From a virus (lineage: Duplodnaviria > Caudoviricetes): a stretch of 64,000 nucleotides of DNA. This document shows, in pieces, positions 35,390 to 43,377 of this stretch (position 1 is the first letter of the stretch; the number at the start of each line of letters is the position of its first letter). The translations under genes and the position numbers were made by a program. The notes below the pieces were generated by a model that did no database searches, had not been told where the DNA came from, and saw only the letters and a program-made list of their open reading frames with translations. The stretch is taken from the IMG/VR virus record IMGVR_UViG_3300031994_000081, positions 7,932-71,931 of that record; one strand, written 5' to 3'.

Positions 35390-35624
35390 GGATAGTAATA
35401 GCAGTTAGTTCAGCCTGCAATACATACAAGGAATCAAGGTCTATGTCAGCATATTTTTGCTCTTGTTTCTCCCTGTTCTTCTCAATTCTGCGAATGACAG
35501 TATCAACAATTTGCTCCATGCCAGCAAAGTCTCTTTTATCCAAGCACTTATAGCAAGCTGGGATTTCTTTCTCAGGCAGTTTTGGAACAAGCTGCCTCAA
35601 TTTTTGAATCTGGGGTGTTTCCAT
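35373..35624 (-). CDS. Hypothetical protein
   Basis: Likely start METPQ at 35624, overlapped by the tail of the HNH fusion gene. Confidence 0.5.
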   Translation of the reverse strand: METPQIQKLRQLVPKLPEKEIPACYKCLDKRDFAGMEQIVDTVIRRIEKNREKQEQKYADIDLDSLYVLQAELTAITIREDLV

Positions 35625-36561
35625 CTTCTTTATATTTGAAGACCCAATTTCGATGATATTTCCTTTCACCGTCACACACTCTTTTTATACAAGTAGAAGT
35701 AGTATGTAACTGTATAGCTGCCTCATTCATAGAAGGATATTCAGCAATAAAGTTACCATGCCTATCAAATTGCAAAATAGAATGTCCCTGAGTTTCTTGC
35801 ATAACCTTTCTATGAGCCTCAGATTTATTATAAGCAGTCAAAGAATTTCTTAACCTTTCTAGGGTTAATTCATTATGCTGATTCTCTAAAGGAGTAACCC
35901 ACCTTAAGTTTGTTACAACATTATTTGATGGATTAGTGTCGATATGGTCTACCTGAGATTTATTTTCAGGATTAGGAATAAATGCCATAGCTACTAGTCT
36001 ATGCACTGGGAAACTACCAGCAACTTGCTGATACCAATTTCTCAATTTTACAAACTTATAGCCATTCGCAGTAGATTGAGTTAAAATTTTCTCTCTCTTT
36101 TTACCATGAAATTGGATGGATTTTACTCTACCATAATTGGAAACCTCATAAAGGTCTCCAAAACCTACAACAGGTTTCCACTCCTCGGTCAAATTGGTCT
36201 GTGATAATATCATAGCTCTTTTTAATTCTGATACACTACCTATTTCAAAAAACTTTTTATTAACGTGATTTGTTTCCAAATATTGTATGAAAAGTTTCTT
36301 TATGACAGGCCACCTGTCATTAGGAAATCCTTTACATTCTACTATAAAGGATTCCCCAACAAAATCAGGTGTATAAGTAACAGGCTTAAAAACTTCCCCT
36401 AGATACACTCTTTGGGGTATAAGCTCATAAGTATGCTTCTCATATTCAACAGGTATTTTAGAATTTTCAAAGAACTTAGCACAATCAGTCTCTAGTTTGC
36501 TCCTATAATGAATCTCATTGTAGGTATTTGGGGTAGCATTTTTTATCTTCTTATTCTCCAT
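35572..36561 (-). CDS. Fusion of a PD-(D/E)XK resolvase-like domain with a NUMOD4-HNH-NUMOD1 endonuclease
   Basis: N-terminal YRSKLE...YTPDF...VECKG; then WKPVVG..YEVSNYGRVKS, VHRLVA..F..VDHID..NN...NLRW, and ILQFD..GNFIAEYPS. Confidence 0.8.
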   Translation of the reverse strand: MENKKIKNATPNTYNEIHYRSKLETDCAKFFENSKIPVEYEKHTYELIPQRVYLGEVFKPVTYTPDFVGESFIVECKGFPNDRWPVIKKLFIQYLETNHVNKKFFEIGSVSELKRAMILSQTNLTEEWKPVVGFGDLYEVSNYGRVKSIQFHGKKREKILTQSTANGYKFVKLRNWYQQVAGSFPVHRLVAMAFIPNPENKSQVDHIDTNPSNNVVTNLRWVTPLENQHNELTLERLRNSLTAYNKSEAHRKVMQETQGHSILQFDRHGNFIAEYPSMNEAAIQLHTTSTCIKRVCDGERKYHRNWVFKYKEDGNTPDSKIEAACSKTA

Positions 36562-37098: not shown

Positions 37099-37785
37099 TT
37101 ATAAATCAGTACACCATTGGATTGGTGTACCATAATTACCAACCATAATAGAGTTAATCTCAGTGAATACCTTATTAGGCATAGGAGTACCAGTTCTAGC
37201 ATAAAATGCAGGATGGTTTACCTTGATAATAGTGTTGAACTTGCTATTGATATAAGGCTCAAATGTCTGAGCCTGTGTACCAAACAAGACATACACCATA
37301 CCAGTTTCCCATTTACTGAGATTCTGTAGTAGTTTAGTGATGAAAGGTCTCCAAAGCATGACATGACTACCAATTCTGTTCATCTCACAAGTGAGTGCAG
37401 AGTTAATCATTAAGATACCTTGCCTTGCCCAAGATTCCATAGTGATGTCAAATGATTTGAAAGGCATAGAATCCTCATCAAGACTCATTACACTCTGTTT
37501 TATCACTTGAAGTGAAGGTGAGATTTCCAATGTGCCTAGCTTATTCCCAAATAAGACCCCAGTTGCTACACCTTTTTGAGGGTAAGGGTCTTGCCCGAGA
37601 AGCACAACCTTGCAATCATGCTCACTGCATAGTGTGAAAGCTCTGAATATATCTGCATAAGCAGGTACAACAGGAGTCACACTATACAGTGAGTTCAGCT
37701 TTGTAACCACTTTGGCAAGCTCAGGCACATCAATGACCTTAAGCCAGTCTCCAAAGTAATCAGTAAGCTTCATGGTGATTTGCAA
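37099..37785 (-). CDS. ung: Uracil-DNA glycosylase, family 1
   Basis: VVLLGQDPY, WARQGILMINSALT and HPA motifs. Confidence 0.93.
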   Translation of the reverse strand: MQITMKLTDYFGDWLKVIDVPELAKVVTKLNSLYSVTPVVPAYADIFRAFTLCSEHDCKVVLLGQDPYPQKGVATGVLFGNKLGTLEISPSLQVIKQSVMSLDEDSMPFKSFDITMESWARQGILMINSALTCEMNRIGSHVMLWRPFITKLLQNLSKWETGMVYVLFGTQAQTFEPYINSKFNTIIKVNHPAFYARTGTPMPNKVFTEINSIMVGNYGTPIQWCTDL

Positions 37786-38473
37786 TGATATTGTTGAAAT
37801 TGGCCATATTGACAGTAGACAAAGTTGGAACCATTGGTTTTACAATCATGGAACCCATGTGTCCTATTACAATTTCAACAGGAACTCTGTTGCCAAAATA
37901 CTCTCCCCTATAGTTGATGTCTATACCTCCATTGGCATAACAAGGGATTGCTTGCTTAATGATAGTCTTTTCAACTATCTCAGAAGCACCCTCAAACACC
38001 TTATAGGAGAGTCTGCACTTTGGATGTGACAGATTTACAGTATTGTGGGCAGCATCATATTCAACTTCAAGAGTGCCTAACATAAGAGGCTCATAGCTCC
38101 CATTGAAAATCATTCCTCGGCAACCATAATAATGCAAGCCTTTGGAAGTAATCACATGGGCTAACCTCATGTTGCTGTTGCCGGCATCAAAAAATTGTCT
38201 GAGTATGGTATTGATGGTCTTTTTATGGAAAGTCCTTCTACCCATATTATCAGCACCATTGACAAGATTATAGACCAGCTTGGTGTAGCCAGCCCTTTTT
38301 GCAGATGCAACATAAGGCACAAGGGGAGTAGGAACCTCAAACTTGTTGCCTGAAATATCAACCTCCAAGAAAGCAGGGAAAGCACCTTCCTCAAGTGATA
38401 CTCGTGGAATTGGATAACCTTCTCTATCTGCTATATACCAAAGGAGCTTGAAAAATTCTTCTATGGAACTCAT
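37760..38473 (-). CDS. Hypothetical protein immediately downstream of the E1-like gene
   Basis: ORF coupled to both neighbours. Confidence 0.6.
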   Translation of the reverse strand: MSSIEEFFKLLWYIADREGYPIPRVSLEEGAFPAFLEVDISGNKFEVPTPLVPYVASAKRAGYTKLVYNLVNGADNMGRRTFHKKTINTILRQFFDAGNSNMRLAHVITSKGLHYYGCRGMIFNGSYEPLMLGTLEVEYDAAHNTVNLSHPKCRLSYKVFEGASEIVEKTIIKQAIPCYANGGIDINYRGEYFGNRVPVEIVIGHMGSMIVKPMVPTLSTVNMANFNNIIANHHEAY

Positions 38474-38474
38474 A

Positions 38475-39677
38475 CTACTCTATTTTGAGTTGCATACTAT
38501 TACCATCATAAGAGGTAAGATAGGGCAGCTCTCTAATAGGAGCACCAGCTACTTCATTTGCAACAAAGTTAGTGAATACATTAACCATCAGGCTGCCAAT
38601 CATGTTAGCCATATAGGTGGTCTGCTTATAGCTGCATACAGTTTCATCAGCCTCAGCATCAGAGAACAAAGCATTTTCTGAATACTTATTGATAGCCCCC
38701 TGGTCATCACCTGTAAAACTGAATACTTGCAGATACTCAGCAGACAATCTGCCATCAATGAAGAGACATTTCTTTCTCTCCTCAAGACTCTTGTTGTTCA
38801 CATGGGAACACCACTTGCGGAAGAAAATCTTTCTGGCTTCCATGTTGTCAAAGCCACAAATCATAATGTCAGCAGCTTCACAACTGTTGGTAAACCTGTC
38901 TCTGATAGCAAACACACTGTTGTAGCTGGCATAGTTGCCAACCATAGCAGCAATGGCATCAACCTTATGCTGGCCAATGTCAGACAAGCTATAAAGCTGA
39001 CCTGACATATTGGCAGCTTCCACTATATCATCATCATAGATGAAGAGTGAAGTAGGCTGCACCCTTGCAAGCAGGAAGCAGACATAACTGCCAATACCAC
39101 CAAGACCAGCAAGGATGATGGTTTTCTTTTGGATTTCCTCAAACCAAGAAGCACCGCTGAACCTGGAAGTATGCTCTGCAACATTCAGAGAACCTGAGTT
39201 GGCAGGCACATGATATGGCACAGCAAGTGGGTGGTTCTTCTCTTCATCAGTGAGGGGAGTAGTCTCCAAGGCATTGTCTGTAATAGCAGCAATTTCCCTT
39301 AAACGGTCTTCACTGTTGCTATAATTGTGGATAATGTCCTTGATTCTCTCAAGTATCTCCCTCTGCTCATTGGTCAGGAAGAGGATATAATTAGTTCTTT
39401 GGAAGGGCAGGAGAATCCAGCCCTTGATGTTCTCATTGTCAAGCCACTGGGTAGTTGAGCCAAATCTGCAAGAAGCAGCCAGCTCACCAGTGAAATGATG
39501 CAACAATATGTAGAACATACCATTGCTGACAGGAGTAGCATCAGGAGTATTCCTAAGAGTGGCAAAAACAGAGAAAGGAAGTGCCTCAGAATCTATGTGA
39601 AATTCATTAAGGGTTTCATTTCTGAATTGTTCAAGCTCATCTCTAGTAAGTTCAGCGATTGTCTCTAAGGTCCTCAT
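38475..39677 (-). CDS. ThiF/E1-like ubiquitin-activating family protein
   Basis: TSRFS, LAGLGGIGS, YDDDIVEAANMSGQ, CGFDNMEAR, IDGR; candidate catalytic Cys in ETVCSYKQ. Confidence 0.88.
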   Translation of the reverse strand: MRTLETIAELTRDELEQFRNETLNEFHIDSEALPFSVFATLRNTPDATPVSNGMFYILLHHFTGELAASCRFGSTTQWLDNENIKGWILLPFQRTNYILFLTNEQREILERIKDIIHNYSNSEDRLREIAAITDNALETTPLTDEEKNHPLAVPYHVPANSGSLNVAEHTSRFSGASWFEEIQKKTIILAGLGGIGSYVCFLLARVQPTSLFIYDDDIVEAANMSGQLYSLSDIGQHKVDAIAAMVGNYASYNSVFAIRDRFTNSCEAADIMICGFDNMEARKIFFRKWCSHVNNKSLEERKKCLFIDGRLSAEYLQVFSFTGDDQGAINKYSENALFSDAEADETVCSYKQTTYMANMIGSLMVNVFTNFVANEVAGAPIRELPYLTSYDGNSMQLKIE

Positions 39678-41394
39678 ATTCTTTAGGCATTAAACTTATA
39701 AGTTCTTCAATCATCATATCTTTGACAGTACTCTTGGGAAGGCTCTCAAGATAATCAATCATATCACAAGCATAAAGGTGAATGAAAGCATCACTGTCAT
39801 TATAGTCGTAGTCATCACCCAAGTTATATCGGGCTGCAATTTCATCTTCATATTTCTTGTCCACTGAGTAGCACAGCATTGCATCAGTGAGAGACTGAAT
39901 CCAGTTCTGGAGTCTGCACTCATTGTAACTGTCAGTAAGCTCACCAAATCTGGCTTCATACAGCTTATCCATCTTCTCCACCCAATCACTGAGATTGAGA
40001 TTAGTCTTCGAGGTAGCCAATATGCTGCCAGTAAGCAGCTGAGTACACAGGGTCTTTACTATGTCGAAAGGGACTTTTTCAAACTGATAAAATTCAGTGA
40101 TACCATCCTCATCATCCACAGGAACAGAAGGAGAACTAAAGCCTTTTTCAACCTCTTCCTGACCCTCAAAGGCAAGTTCAGTTTGATTGGGGTTTTTGAT
40201 TTCTTTCTCCTCAGGCTCCTCTTTCTTGGGAAACCCAATAGTGGGAACTTTGGGTTCTTGATAGGGGAGTCCATACTGATTGAGGGTAATGGATTTACTG
40301 GCAGGCTGATAGCCTCCACCATATCCACCATAGCTGGAATACCTGACTTTGGACTTATTCCTCTTAATCCCATCAAGTCTCTCATCAAGCTCCTTGAAGG
40401 GTTCAGGAACCTCAGTCTTGTTGATTCTCATTTCAAAGAACTCAACACAGGTAACTTCTTTCTCCTCAACCTTGGTCTCTTGTCTCTGAGCACCCTCTGC
40501 AATGACAACATTGACATCTTCAAAGGTCTTATACTCAGTACTCTCAGTATAGGTAATGAGAGCCTCAGCCTTAATCTTCCTTCTGAGTTTTCTAGTAATC
40601 CTAGCCACATACTGACCAGCATTGCAAACAATCAAAGAGAGGAAATGATTGAGGTCACTACCCTCCTCAAGGAGAGTATTAACATCAGTGCCACTGAAAA
40701 ACGCAGCCATGTTATTATGTGACATCATGTAATGTTATCCTTAGAGTTCTTTATCTCTAAGCTCTTGTCCTTATATAAGAAAATATGATAAATTCTTAAC
40801 AAGAATATATCATCATTCTTATGATAAATATAGACAAGTTCAGACTATATCATCACCTGTATAAACAGGGCTGGGCACTCGTGTCTCTATTATATTCTGC
40901 ATAGCAGTTTCAAGAGTTAGTCGTTGAACCTTCCAGCTTTGTTAAAGGCTGACTTGGCTGCTGATTGTCCCTTATCCAGGAGTTTCCAGCAATTCACCCA
41001 GTTTTACATCCACTCACAATTAATGGATTAGAGCCTCATAAATACCAGCTCTGAGCAATCCATGCTCAAGCCTATAATTGATGATGTCAGGAGTATCTCT
41101 GAAATCAGTGAAACCACCAGTGCCAATATCCATGACACAGATGTCCACACAAGTTGCTTTGAAAGTTCCATCATCCAAGGAACCTTCTACGGTGTAGAAT
41201 AAAGTGCCACTCCATTCTACATCATGCACCTTACTACAAAGGTGCCTTATCTTTGCTTCGACCTCTTCAGGAATAATGAGGTCAAATGAAGCAGGGTTTT
41301 TCACCAGCTCTAGCCGTGGCTTGGATGCTACCTTGGTTTCTACCTTGGCTGCTGCCGACTTGACTTGCTTGGCTTTGGTTTTGCCTTTTCCCAT
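39652..41394 (-). CDS. JAB/MPN+ metalloprotease split by a group I intron (exons 41394-41023 and 40722-39652)
   Basis: VEWSG in exon 1. Splicing gives LIH|SHNNMAAFFSGTD, the complete JAMM HxH..SxxD motif. Confidence 0.88.
40723..41022 (-). mobile_element. ORF-less group I intron (300 nt) in the JAB gene
   Basis: The exon ends CAU and the intron ends G. P1 pairs ATCCAT with GTGGAT (U.G at the splice site). Core elements: GGTGAATTGCTGGAA, AATCAGCAGCC, GTTCAACGACTA, GATATAGTCTG. Confidence 0.92.
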
Positions 41395-42625
41395 ATTGAT
41401 AATTGATTATACTTAAAACATTGGTGATTATAGCTTCACAATAATTCTTGGCAAGAAGTAAAGAGTGATTCTCAAGGGTGTTGCCATCAACAAGAATCTT
41501 CAATTTGACCATCTCACCCTTGAACCTGAATAGGTCTCTGCCATTGGCACTTGTAGCAGCACTGATGTCTCTGCCATTGTTGGAAATTTGATAAATTCTA
41601 CCATTGGCAACAACATAATTCTGAAGAACATGAGTATTCTTGAGTTGCTGTAGTGTAGGCATATTGGCAACTCTACACCTATAGTCATTCAGAAAAGCAA
41701 TGAACTCATTGCTCAAATTGACAATCATGGACACTGGACTTTCTCCAATCTGATACTGCCCATTGACAAATTGGAATCTGAACTTATGCTTTTCAGCATA
41801 ATACTGAGTGAAAGCATTGATAAGATGCTTAATAGAGCCACTCAAGATGTTCTTTCCTTGACTATTAAAGTTAGACATGGATTCATCCACATCACCTTTG
41901 TCAACCTCTTCAAGTCTGATATAAGGAGTACCAGCCACAGACTCAACAGTAACATACTTAGCAAGTTCAAAGGTAAACAGACCCCAAAATTGCTCATTAT
42001 AACTGGCTTTAATGGTATCCATAGTAGCATTAATAGGACCAGTTCCTGTGCAAGGATAACTCCATTGACCTGCACTACTTGAATCTACTCTCCTCATGTG
42101 AGAATGAGCATAACCAGCCTTGAATTGCTTATATGAATAAGTAGTCCTAGCAAGATGAAAACACTCCCTTAATCTACCATCAGACTCGATTTTCACACTG
42201 GCATAAAGGTCCTGAATGTCTATGAACCTATCATATTCATTGGTAACTCTCACATTTGGAAAATACACCATAATAGTTTTCAGACTATCCCTTTCTAAAC
42301 CAAGGAAATTCTTGATAGAAGGAGTGATATAGTCTAAAATACCTAAGTCTGGTATATATTCAAGAAAAGATTTACCTCTGCCATTAGCATCATAATCCTG
42401 TCTATCTATGCTATAGTGACCATATTCATTTCTGCCCTCATAGCCATCAATGAAAGTGCCAAGTGTCTTTGAATTAAGAAACTCCACAAGTTCATCAAAG
42501 GTTTTGATGTCAGAATCAACAAAAGGCTCACCAAATTGGTCTATGAACAGCTCAAGAATAGTATTATGCTTTCCATTGAGTCTGTCATAAATCTCTCGTA
42601 ATTTGTCTCTTACTGTATCTAACAT
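41282..42625 (-). CDS. Putative prokaryotic E2-like conjugating protein
   Basis: YAHSH...YPCTGTGPI resembles the UBC HPN...C arrangement. It lies between the Ubl-like and JAB genes. The start is probably 42625 (MLDTV). Confidence 0.55.
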   Translation of the reverse strand: MLDTVRDKLREIYDRLNGKHNTILELFIDQFGEPFVDSDIKTFDELVEFLNSKTLGTFIDGYEGRNEYGHYSIDRQDYDANGRGKSFLEYIPDLGILDYITPSIKNFLGLERDSLKTIMVYFPNVRVTNEYDRFIDIQDLYASVKIESDGRLRECFHLARTTYSYKQFKAGYAHSHMRRVDSSSAGQWSYPCTGTGPINATMDTIKASYNEQFWGLFTFELAKYVTVESVAGTPYIRLEEVDKGDVDESMSNFNSQGKNILSGSIKHLINAFTQYYAEKHKFRFQFVNGQYQIGESPVSMIVNLSNEFIAFLNDYRCRVANMPTLQQLKNTHVLQNYVVANGRIYQISNNGRDISAATSANGRDLFRFKGEMVKLKILVDGNTLENHSLLLAKNYCEAIITNVLSIINYQYGKRQNQSQASQVGSSQGRNQGSIQATARAGEKPCFI

Positions 42626-42632
42626 AATAAAC

Positions 42633-42677
42633 AAAAAAAAAAAAGGACAAGAGCAAAATAATTTCACTCTTGTCCTT
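42633..42677 (-). terminator. Intrinsic terminator after the Ubl-like gene
   Basis: GGACAAGAG/CTCTTGTCC stem followed by a long U tract. Confidence 0.8.
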
Positions 42678-42696
42678 GTTACACAACTCTTACTGA

Positions 42697-43377
42697 TTAG
42701 AGGTCACCAAGCAGAGTGGACAGCTCATCCTTGCTGTACTTGGGAGCATTGCCACTGACAGGGGTAGCAGCCTCAGCAGGGGCTTCACCATCAAAGATGT
42801 CTTCGACATCTTCCTCAGACAGAGCATCATTCTCAACCAGCTTGTCGCAAAGCTTCTTGATGAGAGCCTTGCAGCAGCATTCACCATGATTCTCCTCTTT
42901 CTTCTCAGTCTTAGGAGTGGCAGGCTTATTCTCCTTAGCAGGAGCAGCCTTTTCAGCAGGCTTACTGGCACCCTTATGATTCTGCACAAAGGCAATCAAA
43001 TCAGCAGTGGAACACTGAGTGAAGTTCTTACCGAACTTAGCCTTGATAGCATCACCAAGACCTAACCTCTTGACTTCGGCATAAGCCTCTTGTCTGTCCA
43101 TACCAGACCTAACTTGCTTGTTGGTCTTAGTCAGACGGAACACCAAGTCATTGGTGATACCACCCTTGTAAGGAACATCGTGAGGCAGCACAGAGCTGTC
43201 ATCCTTGAACTCAGTTCTGGTCAGGGCTTCCTGAATGGTCTTACCATCCACATTGAAACCATTCTGACGCAGGTCTCTCTTGAGTTCAGCAACAGTAGTT
43301 GCATTGGATTGGATTTCTTTGGTCTTCTGAGACTCAGTATCCACAATAGTGAAGGTATTCATGTTGTTACTAGCCAT
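42697..43377 (-). CDS. Putative ubiquitin-like (beta-grasp) precursor with a C-terminal extension
   Basis: An N-terminal ~90-aa domain (FTIVDT..KEIQSNATTVAELKRDL...LVFRLT) ending KQVRSG, followed by a helical/low-complexity tail. It is the first gene of the E2-JAB-E1 cluster. Confidence 0.6.
   Translation of the reverse strand: MASNNMNTFTIVDTESQKTKEIQSNATTVAELKRDLRQNGFNVDGKTIQEALTRTEFKDDSSVLPHDVPYKGGITNDLVFRLTKTNKQVRSGMDRQEAYAEVKRLGLGDAIKAKFGKNFTQCSTADLIAFVQNHKGASKPAEKAAPAKENKPATPKTEKKEENHGECCCKALIKKLCDKLVENDALSEEDVEDIFDGEAPAEAATPVSGNAPKYSKDELSTLLGDL

Follow-up and report, generated by a model that had tools for sequence, protein, structure and literature searches.

A putative ubiquitin-like conjugation cassette in the replication module of crAss-like phages

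The DNA analyzed here, a stretch of 64,000 nucleotides (nt; hereafter the window) that is part of the 71.9-kb IMG/VR virus record IMGVR_UViG_3300031994_000081, carries a cassette of four consecutive, co-oriented minus-strand genes for a ubiquitin-like protein (Ubl), a probable E2-like protein, a JAMM/JAB metalloprotease and an E1-like adenylating enzyme (Table 1), in the place where an initial annotation of the same letters had proposed them; for each of the four, the support now goes beyond the recognition of motifs. The folds, motifs, splice junction, synteny and conservation described below are observed, and from them we infer cleavage and adenylation of the Ubl, thioester formation, conjugation and targets; on balance, we think it rather likely that the phage runs its own pathway of Ubl activation and conjugation. 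To our knowledge, the demonstration that bacteria carry out ubiquitin-type conjugation is recent and concerns solely anti-phage defense (Bil, Bub and type II CBASS), and we know of studies of such Ubl kits only in cells and in bacterial anti-phage defense; here, the same logic sits on the phage side. If this is true, a complete Ubl conjugation system would for the first time be on record for a prokaryotic virus, and Ubl systems would serve viruses as well as bacterial defense. Should conjugation be real, phages would control replication or the host at a further, new level, and eukaryotic systems could be compared, in mechanism and evolution, with a very small E1 and an E2 of a new type. The crAss-like family is among the most abundant phages of the mammalian gut, and cultured members with the cassette (crAss001, DAC15/17 and the PhiCrAssBcn phages) are open to direct testing.

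The Ubl is encoded as the N-terminal part of a longer precursor. An AlphaFold2 model built from a 35-sequence alignment has predicted local distance difference test (pLDDT) scores of 87-92 across residues 10-80, and its strands (residues 7-13, 18-24, 46-50, 55-57, 68-70, 73-75 and 78-84) and helix (29-38) have the arrangement of a beta-grasp. Past the grasp, the model shows a tail of low pLDDT (residues 85-92, with low confidence at 88-91) and then three helices within residues 95-135. Foldseek matched the model to DWNN, ubiquitin variants, SUMO1, NEDD8 and UBX domains in the PDB with a probability of 1.0; MoaD also occurs among the matches, the best placed of which are ubiquitin-type modifiers. 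By topology and by its ubiquitin-type structural matches, the modeled domain is a beta-grasp fold, as the initial annotation had called it. Sequence searches with the Ubl returned only sub-threshold noise from Pfam, no match from NCBIfam, PADLOC or the PDB (sequence and profile), and only families of unknown function from PHROGs.

As in a conjugatable type of Ubl, the grasp is followed by a flexible tail and then by a conserved glycine that is predicted to become the C-terminus. The tail reads TNKQVRSG and continues into MDR, with S91-G92 invariant in 84 of 84 homologs (including crAss001 gp79, Fpv20 gp58 and the protein of Dulem virus 41) and K87 conserved. Insertions and deletions in the Ubl alignment start directly past G92, and the real C-termini of the precursors vary by lineage, ending in MFG in Fpv20 and in YLR in Dulem virus 41. 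Action of the E1 on the true C-terminus of the 226-amino acid (aa) precursor, which ends in GL or GM, was considered and dismissed, because this end is unconserved among lineages and predicted to be helical. Furthermore, in three related loci (L023, L062 and L066) the Ubl open reading frame (ORF) stops two codons past SG (SGIC or SGKF, then a stop codon) and is followed by a gene for a free-standing homing endonuclease of the HNH/NUMOD type and then by the C-terminal half with an ATG of its own (MNTNNMTR...). A group I intron was rejected as the cause of the interruption in L023 and L062; since Rfam found no such intron at the interruption in any of the three loci (E<=1) and the insert is occupied by the endonuclease ORF, the split is read as a gene fission. 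Thus, the two halves can exist as separate proteins, and the modifier can bear an extension of a mere two residues, as the Ubls of Bil do. The invariant SG, the indel boundary and this natural split all argue for JAB-type cleavage past Gly92.

The region past the predicted cleavage site, residues 93-226, opens with a conserved three-helix module (R95, Y99, L107, N118, T120 and L127), continues with a K/E/P-rich linker of varying length and ends with a conserved C-terminal helix (Y214 and E218). If freed by the predicted cleavage, this helical part may be a DNA- or protein-binding partner.

The Ubl gene is separated from the E2-like gene by a hairpin (42677-42643) with a 16-bp stem, a 3-nt loop and a run of 10-12 T residues directly after it, an arrangement like that of an intrinsic terminator. 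All 52 distinct Ubl-E2 intergenic regions of relatives contain a strong hairpin (-12 to -26 kcal/mol) that is directly followed by at least six T residues, and the stem sequences differ among lineages. Because it is kept in all of these regions despite the differing stems, the terminator is a selected feature, and its conservation therefore makes differential expression of the modifier plausible. The terminator of the initial annotation thus stands, and the excess of modifier that was proposed along with it is plausible only. It may attenuate transcription, leaving more modifier than enzymes, or it may end an upstream primase-Ubl transcription unit. Matches to sigma-70-type promoters were set aside, as they are not meaningful for phages of Bacteroidota.

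The JAMM/JAB gene is complete only after splicing, as had been proposed. Rfam RF00028 matches positions 41032-40820 with 69.8 bits (gathering score, 50; E 1e-17), which identifies a group I intron. Its P1 helix sets the 5' splice site past the U of ...AUCCAU (a U.G pair), and the intron opens with an in-frame TAA. Exon 1 ends in ...EALIH at 41023, the last base of the intron is G40723, and exon 2 starts with SHNNMAAFFSGTD at 40722. The two exons match by tblastn without any gap between them in at least 15 intronless relatives, whose proteins read ...GLIHSHNNM.TFFSGTD; because these homologs are contiguous at exactly this point, the splice junction (between H and SH) is confirmed. Excision would restore the conserved JAB reading frame. 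Exon 1 carries E60 and ends at H124, the first His of HxH, and exon 2 carries S125-H126, S134 and D137; E60, H124, H126, S134 and D137 are near-invariant in 15 intronless homologs and form the JAMM motif E...HxH...S..D. The remainder of exon 2 encodes a long, poorly conserved C-terminal region. The best homolog in comparisons with Pfam Prok-JAB (PF14464), from the intronless locus L003, scores 22.6 bits (E 1e-4), below the cut-off of 25, and the JAB profile weakly matches archaeal JAMM1 (5ld9/5lda) in the PDB at E 0.22.

Group I introns also lie in the JAB genes of two relatives (L024:7534-7752 and L052:8061-8318), in the E1 gene of L052 (10352-10624) and in the uracil-DNA glycosylase (UDG) gene of L023 (11112-11355). 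In Fpv20 (L083:4241-4990), an endonuclease gene on the other strand interrupts the JAB gene three codons upstream of the intron site of the window. For mobile introns and homing endonucleases, the cassette is a hot spot.

Of the four assignments, that of the E2 is the weakest, and we regard it as probable on the basis of a modest fold similarity, conserved residues and gene context. The gene starts at the ATG at 42625, where the initial annotation had placed it, because the homologs are about 447 aa long and a longer ORF from a GTG would take in the terminator. All 44 aligned sequences share H174-S175-H176 and C192, the loop of the latter reading C192-x-G-x-G-P, and both the HSH and the Cys are kept in the homologs of Fpv20 (gp57) and Dulem virus 41, which hhalign aligns with probabilities of 98.4% and 99.7%, respectively. 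The model (pLDDT 85; predicted template modeling score, 0.70) runs from a long N-terminal helix (residues 3-31) through an insert to three long strands (116-128, 134-146 and 157-164), a loop (171-196) and helices 197-207 and 211-224. Its N-terminal half (approximately residues 9-240) resembles a UBC/RWD/UEV-like fold with an insert of about 80 residues, although the structural similarity is modest (Z 4-6). The HSH...C set is located in the loop between the beta-meander and the following helix (strand 157-164 and helix 197-207). In UBC domains, the HPN motif and the catalytic Cys share one loop. We take the order of elements in the model to correspond to that of UBC domains, with HSH...C at the position of the HPN/Cys loop; the protein thus has a conserved Cys in a loop past a His-containing motif, and a catalytic role is predicted for it. 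Of the E2-like call made initially, the motif has therefore proved invariant, while the fold match is modest and a Foldseek search of the PDB with the model gave no hit at E<=0.001. Searches of BFVD with the model returned only uncharacterized phage homologs, Pfam only sub-threshold noise, PHROGs only families of unknown function, and NCBIfam, PADLOC and PDB sequence and profile searches nothing. None of the 44 members matched an E2 family (Pfam UQ_con and Prok-E2_A-E, PADLOC and NCBIfam) at E<=0.1, and the ESM Atlas held neither a model nor a usable neighbor for the E2-like protein or for the 237-aa protein encoded after the E1. The family comprises 2,991 clusters at 50% identity (E<=0.001), of which 961 match at E<=1e-30; the best 150 matches of a profile search are all full-length family members and include no bridge to known E2 families. 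The gene is present in 45 cultured-phage records and is annotated as hypothetical in all of them. Its 3' end, which encodes a disordered tail (pLDDT <50), shares 113 nt (41282-41394) with the start of the JAB gene in another frame, and an overlap of about 60 nt is likewise present in relatives.

The E1-like protein carries the ThiF domain with a candidate catalytic Cys that had been read from the sequence. Pfam ThiF (PF00899) matches residues 176-397 with 73.1 bits against a cut-off of 28.1 (E 2.5e-20), and the glycines of the nucleotide-binding GxGxxG and the Mg-binding Asp are kept, which places the protein in the E1-like/ThiF superfamily. The ThiF core spans residues ~168-400, and relatives vary in, or lack, the N-terminal 155 residues, the full-length E1 proteins of Fpv20 and Dulem virus 41 being 229-235 aa. 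Among solved structures, the closest sequences are MccB (the best, E 8e-5), UBA5, TcdA, Cap2 and UBA1. Among PADLOC models, the best are Cap2 'E1-E2' models (up to 1.8e-11), and BilD matches residues 186-284 only (6.4e-6). In an alignment of 17 sequences from three lineages, R172, G191/G193/G194, D215, D217, N223, Q227, K238, D277, R282 and C348 (CSYKQT) are invariant. The position of C348 presumably corresponds to the crossover-loop cysteines C184 of ThiF and C187 of MoeB.

From these parts a pathway can be proposed. The Ubl would be made as a 226-aa precursor, and the conserved terminator would probably raise its mRNA above that of the enzymes. The JAB mRNA would have to self-splice its group I intron in order to encode an active JAMM protease, which would then cut past Ser91-Gly92 to yield a 92-aa beta-grasp modifier with a C-terminal Gly and a separate helical protein. 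The ThiF-type E1 would adenylate Gly92 and probably then bind the Ubl through a thioester at Cys348, after which the UBC-like protein would take it over on Cys192 and pass it to lysines of phage or host proteins. The JAMM protease may reverse the mark too. Maturation of this kind has precedent: BilC cuts BilA past its conserved Gly, as shown with a BilA-GFP fusion (bioRxiv 10.1101/2023.09.26.559546), and BubCD cleaves the BubAB fusion past G229 (PMC11601596). By analogy, the cassette order Ubl-E2-JAB-E1, which is that of BilA-B-C-D, also speaks for the pathway. UDG and primase are constantly adjacent to the cassette, and so replication and repair proteins, these two included, are reasonable candidate targets, although this is speculation.

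Several points weigh against a conjugation pathway. The canonical Arg of the NxxRQ nucleotide-phosphate motif is replaced by Gly in all 17 E1 members (NMSGQ, residues 223-227, 39011-38997), with the other ATP-site residues kept, and the E1 is a bare ThiF core, with neither a CYS domain nor a ubiquitin-fold E2-docking domain. The modifier ends in SG instead of the usual GG, the invariant HxH and Cys/Glu set of the E2-like protein could be a metal site, and neither an E3 nor a target is evident.

An alternative reading, which we consider unlikely, is a sulfur-carrier pathway of the ThiS/MoaD, CysO or TtuB type, in which the adenylated glycine of the Ubl becomes a thiocarboxylate that donates sulfur to tRNA, DNA or a small molecule; the JAB would merely mature or recycle the carrier, and the 447-aa or the 237-aa protein would be the sulfur-using enzyme. 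ThiF and MoeB models are indeed the best NCBIfam matches of the E1, which has a minimal ThiF core and a conserved Cys at what we take to be the crossover-loop position of these enzymes, and MoaD is among the fold matches of the Ubl. Sulfur-assimilation operons that combine a JAB, a Ubl and an E1 are known (Iyer et al. 2006, PMC1779556). However, every NCBIfam score is far below its curated cut-off (PRK08644, 66.4 bits against 159; MoeB models, 24-34 bits against 266-449), and by these equivalog cut-offs the E1 is not a ThiF or MoeB proper. Moreover, Pfam and NCBIfam scans of the cassette found no rhodanese, cysteine desulfurase or PP-loop enzyme, the tail is SG rather than GG, the best fold matches of the Ubl are ubiquitin-type modifiers, and a UBC-like protein with an invariant Cys is encoded between the Ubl and JAB genes.

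It is similarly improbable that processing and adenylation take place without protein conjugation, with the JAB splitting a two-part polyprotein, the E1 carrying out another C-terminal chemistry (as MccB and PaaA do) and the 447-aa protein being no E2. MccB heads the PDB sequence matches of the E1, the region past SG is itself conserved and can be a separate gene, and the evidence for an E2 is modest. Phage pairs of Ubl and JAB that lack an E1 or E2 are known, with polyprotein splitting proposed for TAPI and TAPK of phages lambda and T1 (Iyer et al. 2006, PMC1779556). TAPI, like the precursor encoded in the window, is a phage Ubl with a conserved C-terminal Gly, a linker and a second small domain, and the neighboring peptidase TAPK (JAB + NlpC/P60) is predicted to cut at that Gly; in contrast, TAPI and TAPK belong to a tail module without E1 and E2, whereas the cassette, which includes both enzymes, is part of the replication module. 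This alternative leaves the invariant Cys of the E1 and that of the UBC-like protein unexplained, and in it the substrate of the E1 would be an entire beta-grasp domain whose flexible tail is of the ubiquitin type. Nor is there a gene for a small-peptide substrate, and five genes are inherited together across 28-70% identity.

If the cassette is a conjugation system, as we favor, the question arises of how it relates to the known ones. The closest is Bil (BilA Ubl, BilB E2, BilC JAB and BilD E1; types I and II; Chambers et al., bioRxiv 10.1101/2023.09.26.559546), which it resembles in its four activities and gene order, in a conserved Ubl glycine that needs exposure by a JAB, and in having no E3 gene. 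Unlike Bil, the cassette is encoded by a virulent phage and not in a bacterial defense island; its E1 is a bare ThiF core (229-400 aa), whereas BilD has an IAD-AAD-CYS architecture; its E2-like protein matches no BilB model and, at 447 aa, is longer by a C-terminal half; the Ubl glycine is followed by a conserved domain of some 134 aa, as opposed to up to 9 residues in Bil; and there is a fifth conserved gene. Neither the Ubl nor the E2-like or JAB protein had a PADLOC match at E<=0.1, the presence of BilA, BilB and BilC models in PADLOC being unverified. Type I Bub (6E.1; BubAB, BubCD and BubE; Ye et al. 2024, PMC11601596) likewise has its Ubl as the N-terminal part of a precursor, with release by a JAB/JAMM just past the Gly, which is predicted here, and chain D of the Bub complex entry 9eav is among the fold matches of the E2-like model. 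However, the Ubl of Bub is fused to the E2 itself and that of the cassette to a small helical domain, and the fused JAB-E1 of Bub has no catalytic Cys and forms oxyesters, whereas the cassette genes are separate and the Cys is invariant in both the E1 and the E2-like protein. Pfam scans of the cassette found no DUF6527/BubE match.

With type II CBASS the cassette shares the similarity of its E1 core to Cap2, its best PADLOC match (E 1.8e-11), and a JAB partner, which in CBASS is Cap3; it differs in having no CD-NTase, in an E2 and E1 that are not fused, and in a dedicated beta-grasp Ubl. PRTRC (NCBIfam TIGR03734-03741), found on plasmids and integrative and conjugative elements, is also a Ubl-type system on a mobile element among DNA-maintenance genes, and the E1 weakly matches PRTRC_ThiF (TIGR03736; E 6.7e-9, 35.4 bits against a cut-off of 144.75), but ParB is absent and none of the other PRTRC protein models was matched. 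The cassette thus belongs to none of Bil, Bub, CBASS and PRTRC and, because it lacks their defining features, is best described as a virus-carried variant of the prokaryotic Ubl conjugation systems.

The distribution of the cassette bears on its role. The order primase-Ubl-E2-JAB-E1-X-UDG, X being the gene for the 237-aa protein, is common to 80 IMG/VR loci, crAss001 (gp80-gp74), bajarodcaudo virus 1 and Dulem virus 41, with protein identities of 28-70% among the 80 viral loci; the cassette is also found in DAC15/17 and in Flavobacterium Fpv phages, and in Fpv20 the UDG gene is relocated ahead of the Ubl gene. The 237-aa protein is always encoded directly after the E1, has a mean column identity of 26% with no visible catalytic signature, and matched nothing in Pfam, PHROGs, PADLOC, NCBIfam or the PDB. 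When 185,579 genomes of bacteria and archaea were scanned in a pattern-limited manner, the E2-like family had a single match, in locus L086 (CAAGQJ010000060.1; 111,025 bases). This contig of a gut metagenome-assembled genome is labeled Bacilli bacterium, and it has the look of a crAss-like phage genome that was mis-binned, not of a bacterial copy.

That the cassette keeps its place among the replication genes in three divergent lineages (Steigviridae, Fipvunavirus and Dulem virus 41) suggests a core function more than an accessory anti-defense gene. We put it at even chances that Steigviridae and some Flavobacterium phages run a self-contained Ubl cascade as a core part of their replication program, in which a precursor Ubl, a JAMM maturase, a minimal E1 and an oversized E2 would tag replication or repair proteins of the phage, or proteins of the host. 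The replication module of crAss001 is transcribed as middle genes, at 10-30 min (bioRxiv 10.1101/2020.12.02.408625). The cassette would therefore be expressed in the middle class, with the replication genes.

The initial annotation had also proposed that the kit counters host Ubl defenses, and a version of this in which it disrupts Bil, Bub or type II CBASS immunity, by deconjugation or by tagging defense proteins, can be set against a core function. Anti-defense genes are usually variable accessory genes, whereas the position of the cassette inside the replication module is constant across the three lineages, and deconjugation would need just a lone JAB. That bacterial Ubl systems act on phages (PMC11601596; bioRxiv 10.1101/2023.09.26.559546) and that the E1 is similar to the adenylation domains of Cap2 and BilD are in keeping with counter-defense, which we nevertheless hold to be unlikely. 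A chance neighborhood of unrelated genes is very improbable: although sequence comparison assigns neither the E2-like protein nor the 237-aa protein, two of the five, to a family, the same order recurs in the 80 divergent loci and in three phage lineages, adjacent reading frames overlap or abut all the way from the E2-like gene through UDG, and the functions are complementary.

GenBank annotations of the cassette genes read only 'thiamine biosynthesis protein', 'metalloprotease domain' or 'hypothetical'. No description of the cassette was found in the searchable literature (subscription-only articles excluded) on crAss phages in connection with ThiF, JAB or ubiquitin; a 2023 review of Crassvirales does not mention ThiF or a metalloprotease, and a 2026 preprint refers in passing to a gut-phage protein family that resembles UBA5.

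Table 1. Features of the putative Ubl conjugation cassette and its surroundings. Positions are those of the window, except in the last row, where they are those of the related loci.
Feature	Position	Strand	Basis or remarks
Toprim primase	44449-43424	-	Upstream of the cassette
Ubl precursor, 226 aa, crAss001 gp79 homolog	42697..43377	-	AlphaFold2 model, Foldseek, alignments with invariant SG
Ubl residues 1-92, beta-grasp and flexible tail ending in S91-G92	43377-43102	-	Model and alignments
Predicted cleavage site	between 43102 and 43101	-	Invariant SG, natural fission
Ubl precursor residues 93-226, three-helix module, low-complexity linker and C-terminal helices	42700-43101	-	Model and alignment
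Intrinsic-terminator-like hairpin and T10-12	42633..42677	-	Between Ubl stop and E2-like start; sequence scan
E2-like protein (probable), 447 aa, crAss001 gp78 homolog	41282..42625	-	Homologs, alignment, model, hhalign
E2-like H174-S175-H176	42106-42098	-	Alignment
E2-like C192	42052-42050	-	Alignment
JAMM/JAB exon 1, 124 codons	41023..41394	-	phrog_21448, E 6.6e-13; homologs
Group I intron, 300 nt	40723..41022	-	Rfam RF00028; intronless homologs
JAMM/JAB exon 2, 356 codons	39652..40722	-	Alignment; spliced product 480 aa, crAss001 gp77 homolog
E1-like adenylating enzyme, 400 aa, crAss001 gp76 homolog	38475..39677	-	Pfam ThiF, PDB, PADLOC, NCBIfam, alignment
E1 crossover-loop C348	38636-38634	-	Alignment
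237-aa protein, crAss001 gp75 homolog	37760..38473	-	Synteny, alignment
Family-1-like UDG	37099..37785	-	Pfam UDG, E 3.8e-9; synteny; context, speculative target
Split Ubl genes in relatives	L023:4607-5908; L062:4673-5886; L066 same layout		HNH/NUMOD-type endonuclease insert

The closest named relatives of the virus are the crAss-like Steigviridae bajarodcaudo virus 1 and Bacteroides phage crAss001, with nucleotide identities of approximately 72% and 69%, respectively. GC skew is negative throughout from about 12 kb on, and all genes examined lie on the minus strand. Within the replication module, the cassette is placed between the DNA primase and UDG genes, the latter sharing 26 nt with the end of the 237-aa gene, and further downstream of UDG are a PD-(D/E)XK exonuclease gene and other replication genes. 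The module also contains a 329-aa ORF (35572-36561) with NUMOD4/HNH_3-like motifs of the homing-endonuclease type, spotted by eye, and in crAss001 a shorter endonuclease/resolvase gene is found in its place.

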